39,919 bases of DNA from Escherichia phage EG1: sequence record MG488277, one strand, 5' to 3'. Numbering within the stretch: position 1 is the stretch's first letter; every line of letters begins with the position of its first letter. The translations under genes were made by a program, and so were the position numbers. The notes under the pieces are model-generated. The model did not search any database. It was given only the letters and a program-made list of their open reading frames with translations, and was not told the origin of the DNA. Shown here piece after piece: positions 1,003-6,475 of the stretch.

Positions 1003-1050
1003 GGATAGCTCAAGGGTATCGAAAGGTGCCCTTTATGATATCCACTAACA
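1003..1050 (+). promoter_or_regulatory. R0.3: RNase III processing hairpin (R0.3-like)
   Basis: gatagctcaagggtatcgaaaggtgccctttatgat; paralogous to the downstream CTCAAGG...GGCCTTTATGAT hairpins. Confidence 0.6.
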
Positions 1051-1070
1051 ACACTATGAGGTAACACACA

Positions 1071-1433
1071 ATGGCTATGTCTAACATGACTTATAACAAC
1101 GTTTTCGATCACGCTTACGAAATGCTGAAAGAAAACATCCGTTATGATGACATCCGTGACGCTGATGGCCTGCATGATGCAGTGCATATGGCGGCTGATG
1201 CTGCTGTTCCGCACTATTACAGCGACATTTTCAGCGTAATGGCAAGCGAGGGCATTGACCTTGAGTTCGAAGACTCTGGTCTGATGCCGGACACCAAGGA
1301 CGTAATCCGTATCCTGCAAGCGCGTATCTATGAGCAATTAACGATTGACCTTTGGGAGGACGCTGAAGACTTGCTGAACGAGTATCTTGAGGAAGTCGAA
1401 GAGTCTGAAGAGTACGAAGAGGATGGAGAGTAA
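1071..1433 (+). CDS. ocr: Ocr, DNA-mimic anti-restriction protein (gene 0.3)
   Basis: 120 aa; [22 protein letters not shown]... with acidic C-terminus, recognisably T7 gp0.3; SD gagg upstream. Confidence 0.95.
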
Positions 1434-1588
1434 TGGCTAATAACACCACGCAATACGGTCTGACCGCTCAAACTGTACTGTTTTATAGTGACATGGTACG
1501 CTGTGGCTTTGATTGGTCGCTCGCAATGGAACACCTTAAGGAACTGTACGAAAACAACAAGGCAATAGCCTTGGAGTCTGCTGAGTGA
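1433..1588 (+). CDS. 0.4: gp0.4-like small protein (FtsZ inhibitor in T7)
   Basis: 51 aa [51 protein letters not shown]; start overlaps ocr stop (TAATG); below ORF-track cutoff. Confidence 0.85.
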   Translation: MANNTTQYGLTAQTVLFYSDMVRCGFDWSLAMEHLKELYENNKAIALESAE

Positions 1589-1590
1589 TA

Positions 1591-1640
1591 GGCTCAAGGT
1601 CGCTCAATATGAGTGGCCTTTATGATTATCACTTTAACCA
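1591..1640 (+). promoter_or_regulatory. RNase III processing hairpin, copy a
   Basis: ggctcaaggtcgctcaatatgagtggcctttatgattatcactttaac. Confidence 0.7.
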
Positions 1641-1656
1641 ATGAGGGAAGCACACA

Positions 1657-1941
1657 ATGCGCTTAAGTAAAGACACAGCGGTGGCACTACGCTCAGCAAT
1701 TGAATCCAAAGCTGCACACAACGTGGGAGGCCTTGCGGATATTGCACGGGCTTATGAGGAGAAAGGTCTAACATTCCGTCGATTTATGTGGGACTGTTAC
1801 CACGCAGTAGGCTTTCAAGAAACGACACGAATAATCTCTGAGCACAACACGGTGACGTTAATCGGTGGACACCTAACAGACGTGACTGATGCGCACATCG
1901 AAACAATACTCAAGGTTGCGCTTAAAGATTTGCAATACTAG
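1657..1941 (+). CDS. Hypothetical early protein, 94 aa, no T7 counterpart recognised
   Basis: ORF track; SD gaggga 8 nt upstream; sits between two RNase III hairpins in the class I region. Confidence 0.7.
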   Translation: MRLSKDTAVALRSAIESKAAHNVGGLADIARAYEEKGLTFRRFMWDCYHAVGFQETTRIISEHNTVTLIGGHLTDVTDAHIETILKVALKDLQY

Positions 1942-1995
1942 TGATAAACTCAAGGTCGCTCCTAGCGAGTGGCCTTTATGATTATCATTTAACAT
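1941..1995 (+). promoter_or_regulatory. RNase III processing hairpin, copy b
   Basis: gtgataaactcaaggtcgctcctagcgagtggcctttatgattatcatttaac. Confidence 0.7.
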
Positions 1996-2012
1996 GCAAT
2001 AGGACTAATATC

Positions 2013-2213
2013 ATGAGTAAACTTCTGGCAACATCTAAAATCAAAGGCCAACACACTGTAACTCTGCGTGAGTACGAGCACGGGAAAATGGGGAGCACTT
2101 ACGTTGTGCGGTACGGTAAACAAGTAACGCATTGGGTGAACGAGGTTTTGGCGCAAGAAGAATACCAAGCCTGCGTGATACACCAAGCAACCTGCGCTGG
2201 CTGGAATGACTGA
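2013..2213 (+). CDS. Hypothetical early protein, 66 aa (ATG-started version of ORF 1941..2213)
   Basis: ATG at 2013 with agga upstream; the longer track ORF starts at a GTG inside the hairpin, so the internal ATG is preferred. Confidence 0.6.
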   Translation: MSKLLATSKIKGQHTVTLREYEHGKMGSTYVVRYGKQVTHWVNEVLAQEEYQACVIHQATCAGWND

Positions 2214-2233
2214 TACCGCGATTTGTAATACTA

Positions 2234-2290
2234 GCGATAAACTCAAGGTCGCTCCATGCGAGTGGCCTTTATGATTATCACTTTACTTAC
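2234..2290 (+). promoter_or_regulatory. R0.5: RNase III processing hairpin, copy c (R0.5 position)
   Basis: gataaactcaaggtcgctccatgcgagtggcctttatgattatcactttac. Confidence 0.7.
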
Positions 2291-2582: not shown

Positions 2583-3671
2583 ATGCACAAAGTGAACGCT
2601 ATCGACATCATGAACGCTATCAACGCAATCAAAGCACTGCCAATCTGTGAACTTGATAAGCGTCAAAGTATGCTCATTGATTTGCTGGTCGAGATGGTCA
2701 ACAACGAAACGTGTGACGGTGAAATCACCAAGCTGGATAAGCCGCTTGAATATCAGGACTGGTGGACTACCTTAAGAGGTCTCACTACTGACGCTGGCTT
2801 CACGATGCTCGGTAATGGTCACTTCTCTGCTGCATATAGTCACCCACTGCTGCCTAACAGAGTGATTAAGGTGGGCTTTAAGAAAGAGGATTCAGGCGCT
2901 GCGTATATCGCATTCTGCCGCATGTATCAGGGCCGCGCTGGTATCCCTAACGTCTACGACGTTCAGCGTCATTCTGGCTGCTATACGGTGGTTCTTGATG
3001 CTCTGAATGAATGTGAGCGAGAGGATAACTATGAGCACGACAAATACGCTGAGATTGCAAGCGACATCATTGACTGCAACTCTGATATGCACGATTGGCG
3101 TGGCGGATGGGTTGGGGAGTTCGTCGAAACTTGCAAACTAATCCGCAAGTTCTTTGAGGGCATCGCTTCGTTTGACATGCACAGCGGTAACATCATGTTC
3201 GACGATAATGACGTACCGTACATTACCGACCCGGTGTCATTCTCACAGAAGAAAGACGGTGGCGCTTTCAGCATGGACCCTGAGGAACTCATCAAGGAAG
3301 TCGAGGAAGTCGCACGACAGAAAGAAATTGACCGCGCCAAGGAGCGTAAAGCACGCCATGTAGCACGCTTAGAGGTGCGCAGAATCAAACGCCGTAGACG
3401 CAAGGCACGTAAAGCACACATAGCTAAGCGTGAACGAATGGCGGCCCAGTGGCGCATGAACGAGCGTCGAGAACGTCGTAACCATGAGGTAGCTGTAGAT
3501 GTACTAGGAAGAACCAATAACGCTATGCTCTGGGCGCACATGTTCGCGGGGGACTTTAAGGCGCTTGAGGAACGAATCGCAGCGCACTGGTTCCAAGCTG
3601 ACCGCATGGCCATAGCTAATGGTCTTCAGCTCAACATTGATAAGAAACTGGACGCAATGCTAATGGGATGA
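2583..3671 (+). CDS. 0.7: Ser/Thr protein kinase and host-shutoff protein (gene 0.7)
   Basis: 362 aa; ...[21 protein letters not shown]...[32 protein letters not shown]... matches T7 gp0.7; exact start uncertain. Confidence 0.9.
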
Positions 3672-3741: not shown

Positions 3742-6393
3742 ATGAGCACGATTAACATCGCTAAGAACGATTTCTCTGACATCGAACTGGCTGCTATCCC
3801 GTTCAACACTCTGGCTGACCACTATGGTGAGCGTCTAGCTCGCGAGCAGTTGGCCCTTGAGCATGAGTCTTACGAGATGGGCGAGGCACGTTTCCGCAAG
3901 ATGTTTGAGCGTCAACTTAAGGCCGGTGAGGTTGCAGACAATGCGGCTGCTAAACCACTGATTACTACTCTGCTGCCTAAGATGGTTGCACGCATCAACG
4001 ACTGGTTTGAGGAAGTGAAGGCCAAGCGTGGCAAACGTCCAACCGCTTTCCAGTTTCTGCAAGGAATCAAGCCGGAATCTGTAGCATATATCACCATCAA
4101 GACTACTCTTGCTTGTCTGACGAGCGTGGACAATACAACCGTTCAGGCTGTAGCAAGCGCCATCGGACGGGCTATCGAGGAAGAGGCTCGCTTCGGTCGA
4201 ATCCGTGACCTAGAAGCTAAGCACTTCAAGAAAAACGTTGAGGAACAACTAAACAAGCGCGTAGGGCACGTCTATAAGAAGGCATTCATGCAGGTAGTCG
4301 AGGCCGATATGCTCTCTAAGGGTCTACTCGGTGGCGAGGCGTGGTCTTCGTGGCACAAGGAAGACTCCATTCACGTAGGGGTGCGCTGCATTGAGATGCT
4401 CATTGAGTCAACCGGAATGGTTAGCCTTCACCGCCAAAACGCTGGCGTAGTGGGACAAGACTCTGAGACTATCGAGCTGGCACACGAATACGCTGAGGCT
4501 ATCGCAACACGGGCTGGGGCACTGGCTGGTATCTCTCCGATGTATCAGCCTTGCATAGTACCGCCTAAACCTTGGACTGGTGTAACTGGTGGCGGATACT
4601 GGGCTAACGGTCGCCGTCCGCTGGTACTGGTACGCACCCACAGCAAGAAGGCACTGATGCGCTACGAAGATGTTTACATGCCTGAGGTATACAAGGCGAT
4701 CAACATTGCGCAAAACACCGCTTGGAAAATCAACAAGAAAGTCCTAGCGGTCGCCAACGTGATAACCAAGTGGAAGCACTGCCCGGTCGAGGACATCCCA
4801 GCGATTGAGCGCGAAGAACTCCCGATGAAACCGGAAGACATCGACACGAATCCAGAGGCGCTGACCGCTTGGAAACGTGCTGCTGCCGCTGTGTACCGTA
4901 AAGACAAGGCCCGTAAGTCTCGCCGCATAAGCCTTGAGTTCATGCTTGAGCAAGCCAACAAGTTTGCTAACCGTAAGGCCATCTGGTTCCCTTACAACAT
5001 GGACTGGCGCGGTCGTGTGTACGCTGTGTCAATGTTCAATCCGCAAGGTAACGACATGACAAAAGGTCTGCTGACACTGGCTAAGGGTAAGCCAATCGGC
5101 AAGGAAGGATTCTACTGGCTGAAAATTCACGGTGCTAACTGCGCGGGGGTCGATAAGGTTCCATTCCCTGAGCGCATCAAGTTTATTGAGGACAACCACG
5201 ATAACATCATGGCTTGTGCTAAGTCCCCACTGGAGCACACTTGGTGGGCTGAGCAAGATTCTCCGTTCTGTTTCCTCGCGTTCTGCTTTGAGTACGCTGG
5301 GGTACAGCACCACGGACTGAGCTACAACTGCTCGCTGCCACTGGCGTTCGATGGGTCTTGCTCTGGCATCCAGCACTTCTCCGCAATGCTCCGCGATGAA
5401 GTAGGCGGTCGTGCTGTTAACCTGCTGCCTAGCGAAACCGTTCAGGACATCTACGGGATTGTTGCTAAGAAAGTAAACGAGATTCTGCAAGCTGATGTAA
5501 TCAACGGGACCGATAACGAAGTAGTTACCGTGACCGATGAGAACACTGGGGAAATCTCTGAGAAAATCAAGCTGGGTACTAAAGCACTGGCTGGTCAATG
5601 GTTGGCCTACGGTGTGACCCGTAGCGTCACTAAGCGTTCAGTCATGACGCTGGCCTATGGCTCCAAAGAGTTCGGCTTCCGTCAACAAGTCCTTGAGGAC
5701 ACCATACAGCCAGCTATTGATTCAGGCAAAGGTCTGATGTTTACCCAACCTAATCAGGCCGCTGGGTATATGGCTAAGCTGATCTGGGAGTCAGTGAGCG
5801 TTACCGTAGTGGCTGCTGTAGAGGCTATGAACTGGCTTAAGTCTGCTGCGAAGCTGCTGGCTGCTGAGGTCAAAGACAAGAAGACTGGTGAGATTCTCCG
5901 TAAACGCTGTGCGGTGTATTGGGTAACTCCTGATGGCTTCCCTGTGTGGCAAGAATACAAGAAGCCAATTCAGACTCGCTTGAACTTGATGTTCCTCGGT
6001 CAGTTCCGCTTACAGCCGACCATCAACACCAACAAGGACAGCGAGATTGATGCTCATAAGCAGGAATCTGGTATAGCTCCTAACTTTGTACACAGCCAAG
6101 ACGGTAGCCACCTACGTAAGACTGTAGTGTGGGCGCACGAGAAGTACGGCATCGAATCTTTTGCACTGATTCATGACTCCTTCGGGACCATTCCGGCTGA
6201 TGCTGCCAACCTATTCAAGGCTGTTCGTGAGACTATGGTTGACACCTACGAGTCCTGCGATGTGCTTGCTGACTTCTACAACCAGTTCGCTGACCAGTTA
6301 CATGAGTCTCAATTGGATAAAATGCCAGCACTCCCAGCTAAAGGTAACTTGAATTTACGAGACATCTTAGAGTCAGACTTCGCGTTTGCGTAA
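3742..6393 (+). CDS. 1: Single-subunit DNA-dependent RNA polymerase (gene 1)
   Basis: 883 aa, near-identical to T7 RNAP as I recall it (same length, ...ILESDFAFA C-terminus). Confidence 0.98.
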   Translation: MSTINIAKNDFSDIELAAIPFNTLADHYGERLAREQLALEHESYEMGEARFRKMFERQLKAGEVADNAAAKPLITTLLPKMVARINDWFEEVKAKRGKRPTAFQFLQGIKPESVAYITIKTTLACLTSVDNTTVQAVASAIGRAIEEEARFGRIRDLEAKHFKKNVEEQLNKRVGHVYKKAFMQVVEADMLSKGLLGGEAWSSWHKEDSIHVGVRCIEMLIESTGMVSLHRQNAGVVGQDSETIELAHEYAEAIATRAGALAGISPMYQPCIVPPKPWTGVTGGGYWANGRRPLVLVRTHSKKALMRYEDVYMPEVYKAINIAQNTAWKINKKVLAVANVITKWKHCPVEDIPAIEREELPMKPEDIDTNPEALTAWKRAAAAVYRKDKARKSRRISLEFMLEQANKFANRKAIWFPYNMDWRGRVYAVSMFNPQGNDMTKGLLTLAKGKPIGKEGFYWLKIHGANCAGVDKVPFPERIKFIEDNHDNIMACAKSPLEHTWWAEQDSPFCFLAFCFEYAGVQHHGLSYNCSLPLAFDGSCSGIQHFSAMLRDEVGGRAVNLLPSETVQDIYGIVAKKVNEILQADVINGTDNEVVTVTDENTGEISEKIKLGTKALAGQWLAYGVTRSVTKRSVMTLAYGSKEFGFRQQVLEDTIQPAIDSGKGLMFTQPNQAAGYMAKLIWESVSVTVVAAVEAMNWLKSAAKLLAAEVKDKKTGEILRKRCAVYWVTPDGFPVWQEYKKPIQTRLNLMFLGQFRLQPTINTNKDSEIDAHKQESGIAPNFVHSQDGSHLRKTVVWAHEKYGIESFALIHDSFGTIPADAANLFKAVRETMVDTYESCDVLADFYNQFADQLHESQLDKMPALPAKGNLNLRDILESDFAFA

Positions 6394-6401
6394 CGTCAAA
6401 T

Positions 6402-6424
6402 TAATACGACTCACTATAGAGGGA
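6402..6424 (+). promoter_or_regulatory. phi1.1A: T7-RNAP promoter phi1.1A
   Basis: taatacgactcactataGAGGGAC. Confidence 0.9.
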
Positions 6425-6470
6425 CAAACTCAAGGTCACTTAATGAGTGGCCTTTATGATTGACCTTCTT
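6425..6470 (+). promoter_or_regulatory. R1.1: RNase III site R1.1
   Basis: acaaactcaaggtcacttaatgagtggcctttatgattgacc. Confidence 0.75.
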
Positions 6471-6475
6471 CCGGT

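Follow-up and report, generated by a model that had tools for sequence, protein, structure and literature searches.

The early region of phage EG1

The 39,919-nucleotide sequence of Escherichia phage EG1 (record MG488277), referred to here as the window, is a T7-like podophage genome whose closest record in the phage collection is that of Yersinia phage vB_YenP_WW2 (WW2; ~94-96% identity), with the same early-region layout. In the interval 1003-2290 of this genome, hairpins resembling the ribonuclease III (RNase III) processing sites of phage T7 alternate with small genes, two of which, the open reading frames (ORFs) ORF94 and ORF66 (gene 0.45), are absent from T7. From the left end, with H standing for a hairpin, the order is four promoters, H-ocr-0.4, H-ORF94, H-ORF66, H-0.5-0.6-0.7 and the RNA polymerase gene. 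The original prediction, made from the letters of the sequence, had described four copies of an RNase III hairpin module here, two of them carrying extra genes gained by recombination between repeated processing sites, and had put the added DNA at about 650 bp; the measured excess over T7 is 649 bp (1593 to 2242). The features of the interval are listed below, with bit scores from the covariance model described in the next section.

997-1051, + strand: R0.3-type hairpin before ocr; 57.6 bits; -21.5 kcal/mol, z -4.5; near-identical to T7 R0.3
1071-1433, + strand: gene 0.3 (ocr, DNA-mimic anti-restriction protein); Pfam PF08684, E 9e-62; phrog_2568; preceding motif end 1039, Shine-Dalgarno 1058, ATG 1071
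1433-1588, + strand: gene 0.4; phrog_7202, E 1e-33; 84% amino acid identity to T7 gp0.4
1581-1638, + strand: hairpin A, R0.5-type, apical block AATAT; 74 bits; -24.6 kcal/mol, z -4.5
1657-1941, + strand: ORF94, accessory early gene; phrog_9817, E 4.9e-40, residues 1-94 of 94; preceding motif end 1626, Shine-Dalgarno 1643, ATG 1657
1937-1994, + strand: hairpin B, R0.5-type; 76 bits; position annotated 'R0.45' in phiYeO3-12
2013-2213, + strand: ORF66, gene 0.45; phrog_6500, E 4.5e-44, residues 1-66 of 66; preceding motif end 1982, Shine-Dalgarno 2001, ATG 2013
2230-2287, + strand: hairpin C, R0.5-type, before gene 0.5, apical block CATGC; 75.1 bits; -18.1 kcal/mol, z -2.2
2304-2432, + strand: gene 0.5 homologue; phrog_16572, E 1.6e-26; 82% amino acid identity to T7 gp0.5; preceding motif end 2275, Shine-Dalgarno 2291, ATG 2304

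Number and spacing of the hairpins

Four exact matches to CTCAAGG-N(10-30)-GGCCTTTATGAT lie on the + strand (1593, 1949, 2242 and 6429), compared with none in 100 shuffles. The match at 6429 is the R1.1 site after gene 1, outside the interval 1003-2290, and the copy before ocr (1009-1039), which reads GCCCTTTATGAT, is a looser relative of the others (repeat family D3, 76-81% over 21 nt). Loose regular-expression scans for hairpins returned many false positives, including phage promoters, and a covariance model built on 51 distinct hairpins of related phages was used instead. Scanned over the whole EG1 genome, it gave eight strong matches, all of them on the + strand and intercistronic, namely the four hairpins listed above and the following four.

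6417-6472, + strand: R1.1-type hairpin after gene 1; 63.5 bits
13951 (start), + strand: strong covariance-model match; 54.7 bits
18517 (start), + strand: strong covariance-model match; 57 bits
36806 (start), + strand: strong covariance-model match; 49.5 bits

The predicted number of four copies is therefore right for the interval and too low for the genome, where at least eight strong members are found, and the motif said to be common to all four is present in the copies at 1593, 1949 and 2242, with the pre-ocr copy matching it only loosely. Copies A, B and C are identical from CTCAAGG to TATCA save for a 5-nt apical block (AATAT, CTAGC and CATGC, respectively), so that their near-identity stands and the variable loop, given as 4 nt, was described closely, if one nucleotide short. 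The Shine-Dalgarno sequence starts 16-19 nt past the motif in all four copies, in agreement with the ribosome-binding site and start codon predicted shortly after each of them, and the leaders of ocr and ORF94 (the ORF starting at 1657) do contain the common start context that had been pointed out, CACACAATG (repeat family D5).

On their 5' side hairpins A and B overlap the preceding genes. The 5' arm of the lower stem (AGTGATA) contains the stop codon of gene 0.4 (TGA, 1586-1588) in hairpin A and that of ORF94 (TAG, 1939-1941) in hairpin B. In effect, the next hairpin supplies the stop codon of the upstream gene. The stop codon of gene 0.45 in phage 13a (L094, ~1130) likewise lies inside the lower stem of the next hairpin.

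The hairpins as putative RNase III processing sites

The four copies and the R1.1 site (6429) fold into one common shape, the shape of the T7 RNase III sites, in which stems of 5-9 bp (lower) and 9-11 bp (upper) flank an asymmetric 4/5-nt internal loop, with CUCA on the 5' side and UAUGA on the 3' side. Sites of this type are made up of some two helical turns of double-stranded RNA, as two coaxial stems, and their internal loop restricts the cut to a single strand. Fold energies of the five hairpins range from -18 to -25 kcal/mol (z -2.2 to -4.5). Among the 51 unique hairpins, RNAalifold found 17 pairs, 10 of them with compensatory changes, and the consensus structure was the same over 51 and over 99 hairpins. 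In the 99 model matches (32 sources, 82 distinct sequences), 95.4% of cells are paired and double changes occur in 13 of the 17 pairs, in an alignment that was fitted to the model and so favours the structure somewhat; none of 500 shuffles reaches this value, and sliding the 3' partner by 1-3 columns leaves 33-51% paired. The structure is thus backed by covariation over 82 distinct family members.

The comparison with T7 points in the same direction. The 34-nt core of copy B (from 1949) is identical at 34 of 34 positions to R0.5, the hairpin between T7 genes 0.4 and 0.5. The 5' flank of copy A is that of T7 R0.5 (the end of gene 0.4), the 3' leader of copy C is the R0.5 leader into gene 0.5, and the cores of A and C differ from R0.5 solely in the apical block next to the loop. 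The copy at 997 differs from T7 R0.3 by ~2 nt. In the T7 feature table, RNase III sites R0.3, R0.5 and R1.1 are at nt 890, 1468 and 5887. Mapped onto the T7 record, all three positions fall on the same U of UAU↓GAU, which supports both these positions and the cut positions predicted for EG1, after U1036, U1623, U1979 and U2272. In the record of phage phiYeO3-12, homologous elements are annotated as RNase III sites R0.3, R0.45 and R4.7, with the one before gene 0.45 entered as 'putative RNase III site R0.45'. A whole-genome scan at Rfam gathering thresholds gave no match, and is uninformative, since no Rfam family covers such sites.

R1.1 is the model RNase III substrate of PMC1540722; internal loops in such substrates confine the cut to a single phosphodiester and leave a hairpin that protects the 3' end, and a further substrate feature is the lack of antideterminant base pairs in the proximal and distal boxes (PMC1540722). 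With regard to these boxes, copy B would have the status of T7 R0.5, to which its whole stem is identical, and A and C depart from it only beside the loop. The EG1 hairpins resemble T7 R0.3, R0.5 and R1.1 in the two-stem fold, the asymmetric internal loop, the CUCAAGG and CCUUUAUGAU boxes, and the intercistronic position on the same strand. Unlike EG1, T7 has one R0.5 site instead of three paralogous copies bracketing two genes that it lacks. In fold, T7 homology, compensatory change and intercistronic position with a Shine-Dalgarno leader, the hairpins fit a T7-type site, and homology to the T7 sites, the common fold and covariation support their assignment as T7-type RNase III processing sites, as had been predicted.

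The two extra genes

A tblastn search with ORF94 found 60 phage records at no less than 80% coverage. Identities are 73-99% where the phage is T7- or T3-like and ~50% in the genera Kayfunavirus and Przondovirus. The ratio of nonsynonymous to synonymous substitution rates (dN/dS) of ORF94 is 0.05-0.17. Gene 0.45 was found by tblastn in 147 phage records, including the annotated gp0.45 of phiYeO3-12, phiSG-JL2 and 13a; ORF66 is 84.8% identical to that of phiYeO3-12 and 89.4% identical to that of phiSG-JL2, and its dN/dS is 0.04-0.14. Both extra genes thus evolve under purifying selection, and both were already known as accessory genes of the early region. The hairpin units are less new than the original prediction implied, as 0.45 with its 'R0.45' site is already annotated in phiYeO3-12 and ORF94 belongs to a known PHROG family.

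Neither ORF94 nor gp0.45 has a Pfam family or sequence relatives in PDB, and the base composition gave no sign of foreign origin for either cassette. The single-sequence AlphaFold2 model of ORF94 was poor (predicted local distance difference test score, pLDDT, 53.6), and with a shallow alignment of 27 sequences one of five models reached a pLDDT of 80. A Foldseek search with this model of uncertain quality found nothing in PDB (best E 3.4), and in BFVD its own family alone. A search for related loci with the single ORF94 protein returned two distant loci only. Judged by their early position only, ORF94 and gp0.45 most likely act in host takeover or against host defences.

A third small gene (50 amino acids, MKRYAIIIPGW...) lies between ORF94 and 0.45 in phiCFP-1 (L003, 1242-1468) and in L036 (1622-1844). 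The hairpin ahead of it is divergent (CTACAGGTCGTTAGCTCGTAGCGGCCTGAATGAT, 39-43 bits), and none separates the gene from 0.45, whose start it overlaps.

Arrangement of the units in related phages

About 35 related early regions, taken from GenBank records and IMG/VR contigs, were compared with that of EG1. Their layouts were as follows.

T7 and ESh6: 0.4-H-0.5 (neither gene)
CICC 80001 and 04922B: 0.4-H-0.45-H-0.5 (0.45 only)
vB_Yep_9 (Yep_9): 0.45 only, without ORF94
WX1 and PGX1: 0.4-H-ORF94-H-... (ORF94 only)
EG1 and WW2: 0.4-H-ORF94-H-0.45-H-0.5 (both genes)
EFA-2: H-0.45-H-ORF94-H-0.5 (reverse order)
13a: H-0.45-H-ocr (0.45 as the first gene)
L029: H-ORF94-H-ocr
Peacock (Kayfunavirus): ORF94 ahead of ocr
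L035: H-SAMase-H-ocr
L005: ocr-H-SAMase
SALSA: H-SAMase-H-ORF94-H, with the gene order SAMase-ORF94-0.45

The T7 record shows R0.3 and a single R0.5 hairpin in this interval, one hairpin between 0.4 and 0.5 compared with three in EG1. What had been said of T7, that it has only these two sites here, is correct, and so is the count of two extra hairpin-plus-gene units in EG1. A comparison with other T7-group early regions had been proposed as a check, and it reveals that the units vary in presence, order and position. All four combinations of presence and absence of ORF94 and 0.45 are found among close relatives, and in almost all of the variants in order or position the unit is bracketed by hairpins defined by the model. 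An artefact of assembly caused by the repeats was ruled out, as the independent assembly of WW2 has the same three-hairpin layout.

The phages of the T3 group provide the nearest known counterpart of the 0.45 unit. In phiYeO3-12, 0.45 is preceded by a hairpin of the same family (69.9 bits, compared with 76 in EG1). However, the unit of phiYeO3-12 follows the SAMase gene and leads straight into 0.6 with no hairpin after it, whereas in EG1 its neighbours are ORF94 and 0.5, the early region is of the ocr type (T7-like), and hairpins stand on both sides of the unit.

Two other arrangements were seen in this set. In Yep_9 (L086, 1266-1302), 0.45 is joined to 0.5 with 36 nt between them and no hairpin, which indicates that an early gene can lose its processing site. 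Directly 3' of an R0.5-type hairpin, WX1 (L082, 1591-2253), L041 (1530-1970) and L014 (6264-6464) carry an HNH or 'endonuclease VII' ORF in the position that gene 0.5 occupies in EG1.

Junctions, hybrid hairpins and mosaicism

In the regions compared, the 5' arm of a hairpin tracks the upstream gene (CTGAGTGATAGR after 0.4, ACTAGYGATAAA after ORF94 and CCMAGTGATARR after 0.45), the 3' leader tracks the downstream gene, and between them lies a common core of ~55 nt. This core, AGTGATARR-CTCAAGG...GGCCTTTATGAT-TATCAC, is the sole sequence common to intergenic junctions that are otherwise unrelated, and the junctions in relatives are always in or beside a hairpin.

Several hairpins at these junctions are hybrids. 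The single hairpin of ESh6, whose ocr-0.4 segment is 97.2% identical to that of EG1, has the 5' flank and AATAT loop of copy A and the leader of copy C, and is an exact A x C product. CICC 80001 keeps the loop of A before 0.45, and Yep_9 has a B-type loop behind a 0.4 flank, which suggests two different crossover points in one element. In 13a, the hairpin that separates 0.45 from ocr is of R0.5 type in its lower stem and of R0.3 type in its upper stem, and the hairpin after ORF94 in WX1 has a 0.4-type arm. In WW2, all three R0.5-type hairpins (L002, 904-938, 1261-1295 and 1555-1589) carry the same 1-nt insertion in the internal loop, CCTTTCATGAT, beside the predicted cleavage site; the three R0.5-type copies of EG1 read CCTTTATGAT and the R1.1 site of WW2 reads CCTTTTATGAT, both without the insertion. 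This concerted change suggests conversion between the copies.

The early region as a whole is a mosaic. EG1 1000-1600 (ocr-0.4) is closest to Shigella phage ESh6 (97.2%), which has neither cassette, and EG1 1627-2213, with the two cassettes, has 98.7% identity to WW2, compared with only 93.5-95% for the ocr-0.4 segment of that phage. Exchange through long flanking genes alone fails to account for the changes in order and position, the hybrid hairpins and the concerted insertion in WW2. The comparative evidence supports recombination between hairpins, of which the individual events would be reconstructions.

Direction of change

A trace of the history of the interval is a 67-nt direct repeat, 1927-1993 and 2220-2286 (family D1, 91% identity), which continues for 13 nt on the upstream side of the lower stem and holds the following remnant.

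2220-2234, + strand: ORF94 tail remnant, the last 15 nt of ORF94 (GATTTGTAATACTAG), after gene 0.45 and within the 67-nt repeat

The 5' arm that goes with it, ACTAGCGATAAA, is found elsewhere only after ORF94, in EFA-2 and PGX1. In 04922B and CICC 80001, which have no ORF94, the 0.45 flank is longer and reads ...CCGCGATTTGCAATCACTGG..., and in EG1 it runs to GATTTG and is then followed by the ORF94 tail and the arm AATACTAGCGATAAA, as after ORF94 in EFA-2 and PGX1. As the ORF94 tail and an ORF94-type arm are repeated after 0.45, the simplest history would be an insertion of 0.45 into a genome with the order ORF94-hairpin-0.5, which supports gain of this gene. With respect to the predicted gain of cassettes by recombination between processing sites, the comparative evidence favours the recombination for both units and the gain for 0.45 only.

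Proposed mechanism and alternatives

We consider it probable that the hairpins serve both as RNase III sites in the early transcript and as portable homology for the recombination of cassettes, and that 0.45 was inserted in this way. Host RNA polymerase would make a polycistronic early transcript carrying the four hairpins, and each of them would be cut once, on the 3' side of the internal loop. The upstream mRNA would keep the stem-loop at its 3' end, capped and protected by it, and the cut would free a leader of 31-34 nt with the Shine-Dalgarno sequence of the next gene (A 33, B 33 and C 31 nt). The expected products are separate mRNAs for 0.3-0.4, ORF94 (356 nt), 0.45 (293 nt) and 0.5 onward. 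A scan of 1500-2400 found no promoter-like sites and, on the + strand, no terminator-like sites, and the hairpin stems are followed by no U-tract; with no promoter or terminator of their own at the hairpins, the units must rely on upstream promoters and be separated by processing. At the level of DNA, hairpin-to-hairpin recombination in mixed infections, or between misaligned sister genomes, would insert, delete and reorder hairpin-bounded gene units across Studiervirinae. In the case of 0.45, the left crossover may have occurred in the hairpin and the right one where ORF94 ends, within a microhomology of 10 nt (GATTTGCAAT), with the latter duplicating the ORF94 tail along with the hairpin.

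Several points weigh against this proposal. We infer RNase III cleavage in EG1 from homology, and copy C has the weakest fold (z -2.2), marginally better than its shuffles. Many loci were fetched by the exact hairpin motif, and the invariance of CTCAAGG and CCTTTATGAT is partly by construction, which does not apply to the variable positions of the lower stem and of the distal part of the upper stem. The comparison is a survey of ~35 genomes picked by similarity and not a statistical test over all Studiervirinae. A hairpin stands between every gene pair in this region, so boundaries would coincide with hairpins to some extent under any mechanism, and identity of the cores could be maintained by selection acting only on the RNA. 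The 10-nt microhomology at the right-hand junction of 0.45 lies just upstream of the hairpin, outside the hairpin itself, and this junction between 0.45 and hairpin C, like the hairpin-less 0.45-0.5 junction of Yep_9, reflects an event outside the hairpin. For ORF94, gain and loss are both possible.

Loss instead of gain is the strongest alternative, and we regard it as a real, though less probable, one. The multi-cassette layout would then be ancestral, and the T7 and ESh6 layouts would have arisen by hairpin-to-hairpin deletion, that is, by the same mechanism. The ESh6 hairpin, with the left part of A and the right part of C, is exactly the product expected from a 649-bp A x C deletion in a genome with such a similar ocr-0.4 segment, and Yep_9, whose flanking segments are 93.7-96.8% identical to those of EG1, has no ORF94 and an A/B hybrid hairpin; both junctions can be read equally well as deletions. 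Direct repeats of ~55 bp are classic substrates of deletion. However, insertion through crossovers in hairpins leaves the same hybrid junctions, the duplicated ORF94 tail after 0.45 is not producible by deletion from a simple ancestor, and the different positions of both genes across genera require insertions somewhere.

It is unlikely that the hairpins are passengers and that the cassettes spread by homologous recombination in the flanking genes 0.4, 0.5 and 0.7. At 83-97% identity among relatives, these genes provide homology over lengths well beyond 55 bp. Larger blocks are clearly exchanged, as the different closest relatives of the ocr-0.4 segment (ESh6) and of the cassettes (WW2) demonstrate, and covariation reveals strong purifying selection on the RNA. 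Recombination in the flanks only, however, cannot reorder genes, and 0.45 and ORF94 are found in both orders, either of them ahead of ocr, and SAMase on either side of it. It also leaves unexplained the chimeric hairpins of 13a, ESh6, Yep_9, CICC 80001 and WX1 and the 1-nt insertion common to all three WW2 copies.

We find it very unlikely that mobility is driven by homing HNH or endonuclease VII-like enzymes that cut near the hairpins, with co-conversion of the cassettes during break repair. In its favour are the ORFs found directly after an R0.5-type hairpin in WX1, L041 and L014, but no such gene is present in the EG1 early region or in most cassette-bearing relatives, there is no evidence of a target site, and the HNH genes look like further cargo in the same positions.

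That the repeats are another kind of element (terminators, attenuators, or binding sites of phage or host proteins) is hardly credible, even though no Rfam family provides an independent model match and the cleavage is itself deduced, since the hairpins have no U-tract, the + strand terminator scan was negative at their positions, their cores are identical or nearly so to T7 R0.5, R0.3 and R1.1, the classical mapped RNase III substrates, and their homologues bear RNase III annotations in phiYeO3-12.

Comparison with other exchange systems

In evolutionary behaviour, the closest analogues of the EG1 hairpins are the promoter-early stem-loops (PeSLs) of T4-type phages, short conserved regulatory motifs that recur between small genes of unknown function and have been proposed to provide homology for recombination and so to mediate the shuffling of modules (PMC2839356, PMC4122927). 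In both cases the motif contains the boundaries at which close relatives differ by insertion, deletion or replacement, for the EG1-type hairpins across the ~35 genomes. The PeSL consists of a promoter and a terminator-like stem-loop, while the EG1 motif is a processing hairpin without a promoter, and the two differ in phage family and recombination machinery. The likeness is thus a working analogy, and the EG1 units are not PeSLs. With the morons of lambdoid phages the EG1 units have in common that small accessory genes were placed between conserved ones. A moron carries a promoter and a terminator of its own, and the EG1 units, with neither in the 1500-2400 scan, are not morons; they would rely instead on read-through from the early promoters plus processing.

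We consider it about as likely as not that the RNase III hairpin of the T7 group is at the same time the junction at which cassettes are exchanged across several genera, with Studiervirinae trading host-takeover and anti-defence genes as hairpin-bounded units in the manner proposed for T4-type phages and their PeSLs. One unit of ~55 bp would then give the stop codon of the upstream gene, a 3' stabiliser, a processing site and the start of the downstream leader, and a small gene dropped between two copies would be expressed at once as its own early mRNA. No description of RNase III sites as exchange junctions in T7-like phages was found in the literature searched, which did not cover the classical T7 literature. 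In ~1979-1983, Studier and colleagues reportedly described deletion mutants of the T7 early region with end points in short repeats.

The left end and neighbouring genes

The remaining features of the left end are the early promoters upstream of the interval and the genes downstream of it.

471-882, + strand: four sigma-70-type early promoters, first hexamers at 471, 599, 707 and 854; consensus scan, each 10/12
2426-2563, + strand: gene 0.6A homologue; phrog_8393, E 1e-26; 86% identity to T7
2583-3671: gene 0.7
3742-6393: RNA polymerase gene

The four promoters at 471-882 should drive a polycistronic early transcript. EG1 has four strong promoters of the sigma-70 type, compared with three in T7. 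EG1 414-743 and 852-1075 align to T7 410-750 and 712-929, and T7 promoter A3 aligns twice, to EG1 707-743 and 852-887, with ~110 bp unmatched between them (744-851). The double match of A3 indicates that a regulatory element upstream of R0.3 has been duplicated as well. At 150-330 and 383-420, the left end also contains short tandem repeats (four CCTCCTAAAGT-like copies and three of CATCCTAACGAC) and a phage promoter of the T7 type, TAATTCGACTCACTATAG, with a (GA)n run behind it.

Meaning for T7-like phages

The RNase III sites, both cargo families and 0.45 with its R0.45 site were already known, and what is described here is an evolutionary pattern and not a new kind of system. What is added is the permutation of hairpin-bounded units, with hybrid hairpins at their junctions. 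In T7-like phages, genes for host takeover and anti-defence lie in the early region, among them ocr, SAMase, gp0.4 and the gp0.7 kinase. A role of the hairpins as crossover points, if real, would explain the fast turnover of early genes between genomes that are otherwise 95% identical, and it would predict that new accessory genes are to be found between two model-defined hairpins. For phage engineers, the hairpins would then offer ready-made insertion sites that give both expression and mRNA stability. ORF94 and gp0.45, as mobile and conserved early genes, are worth screening for function.

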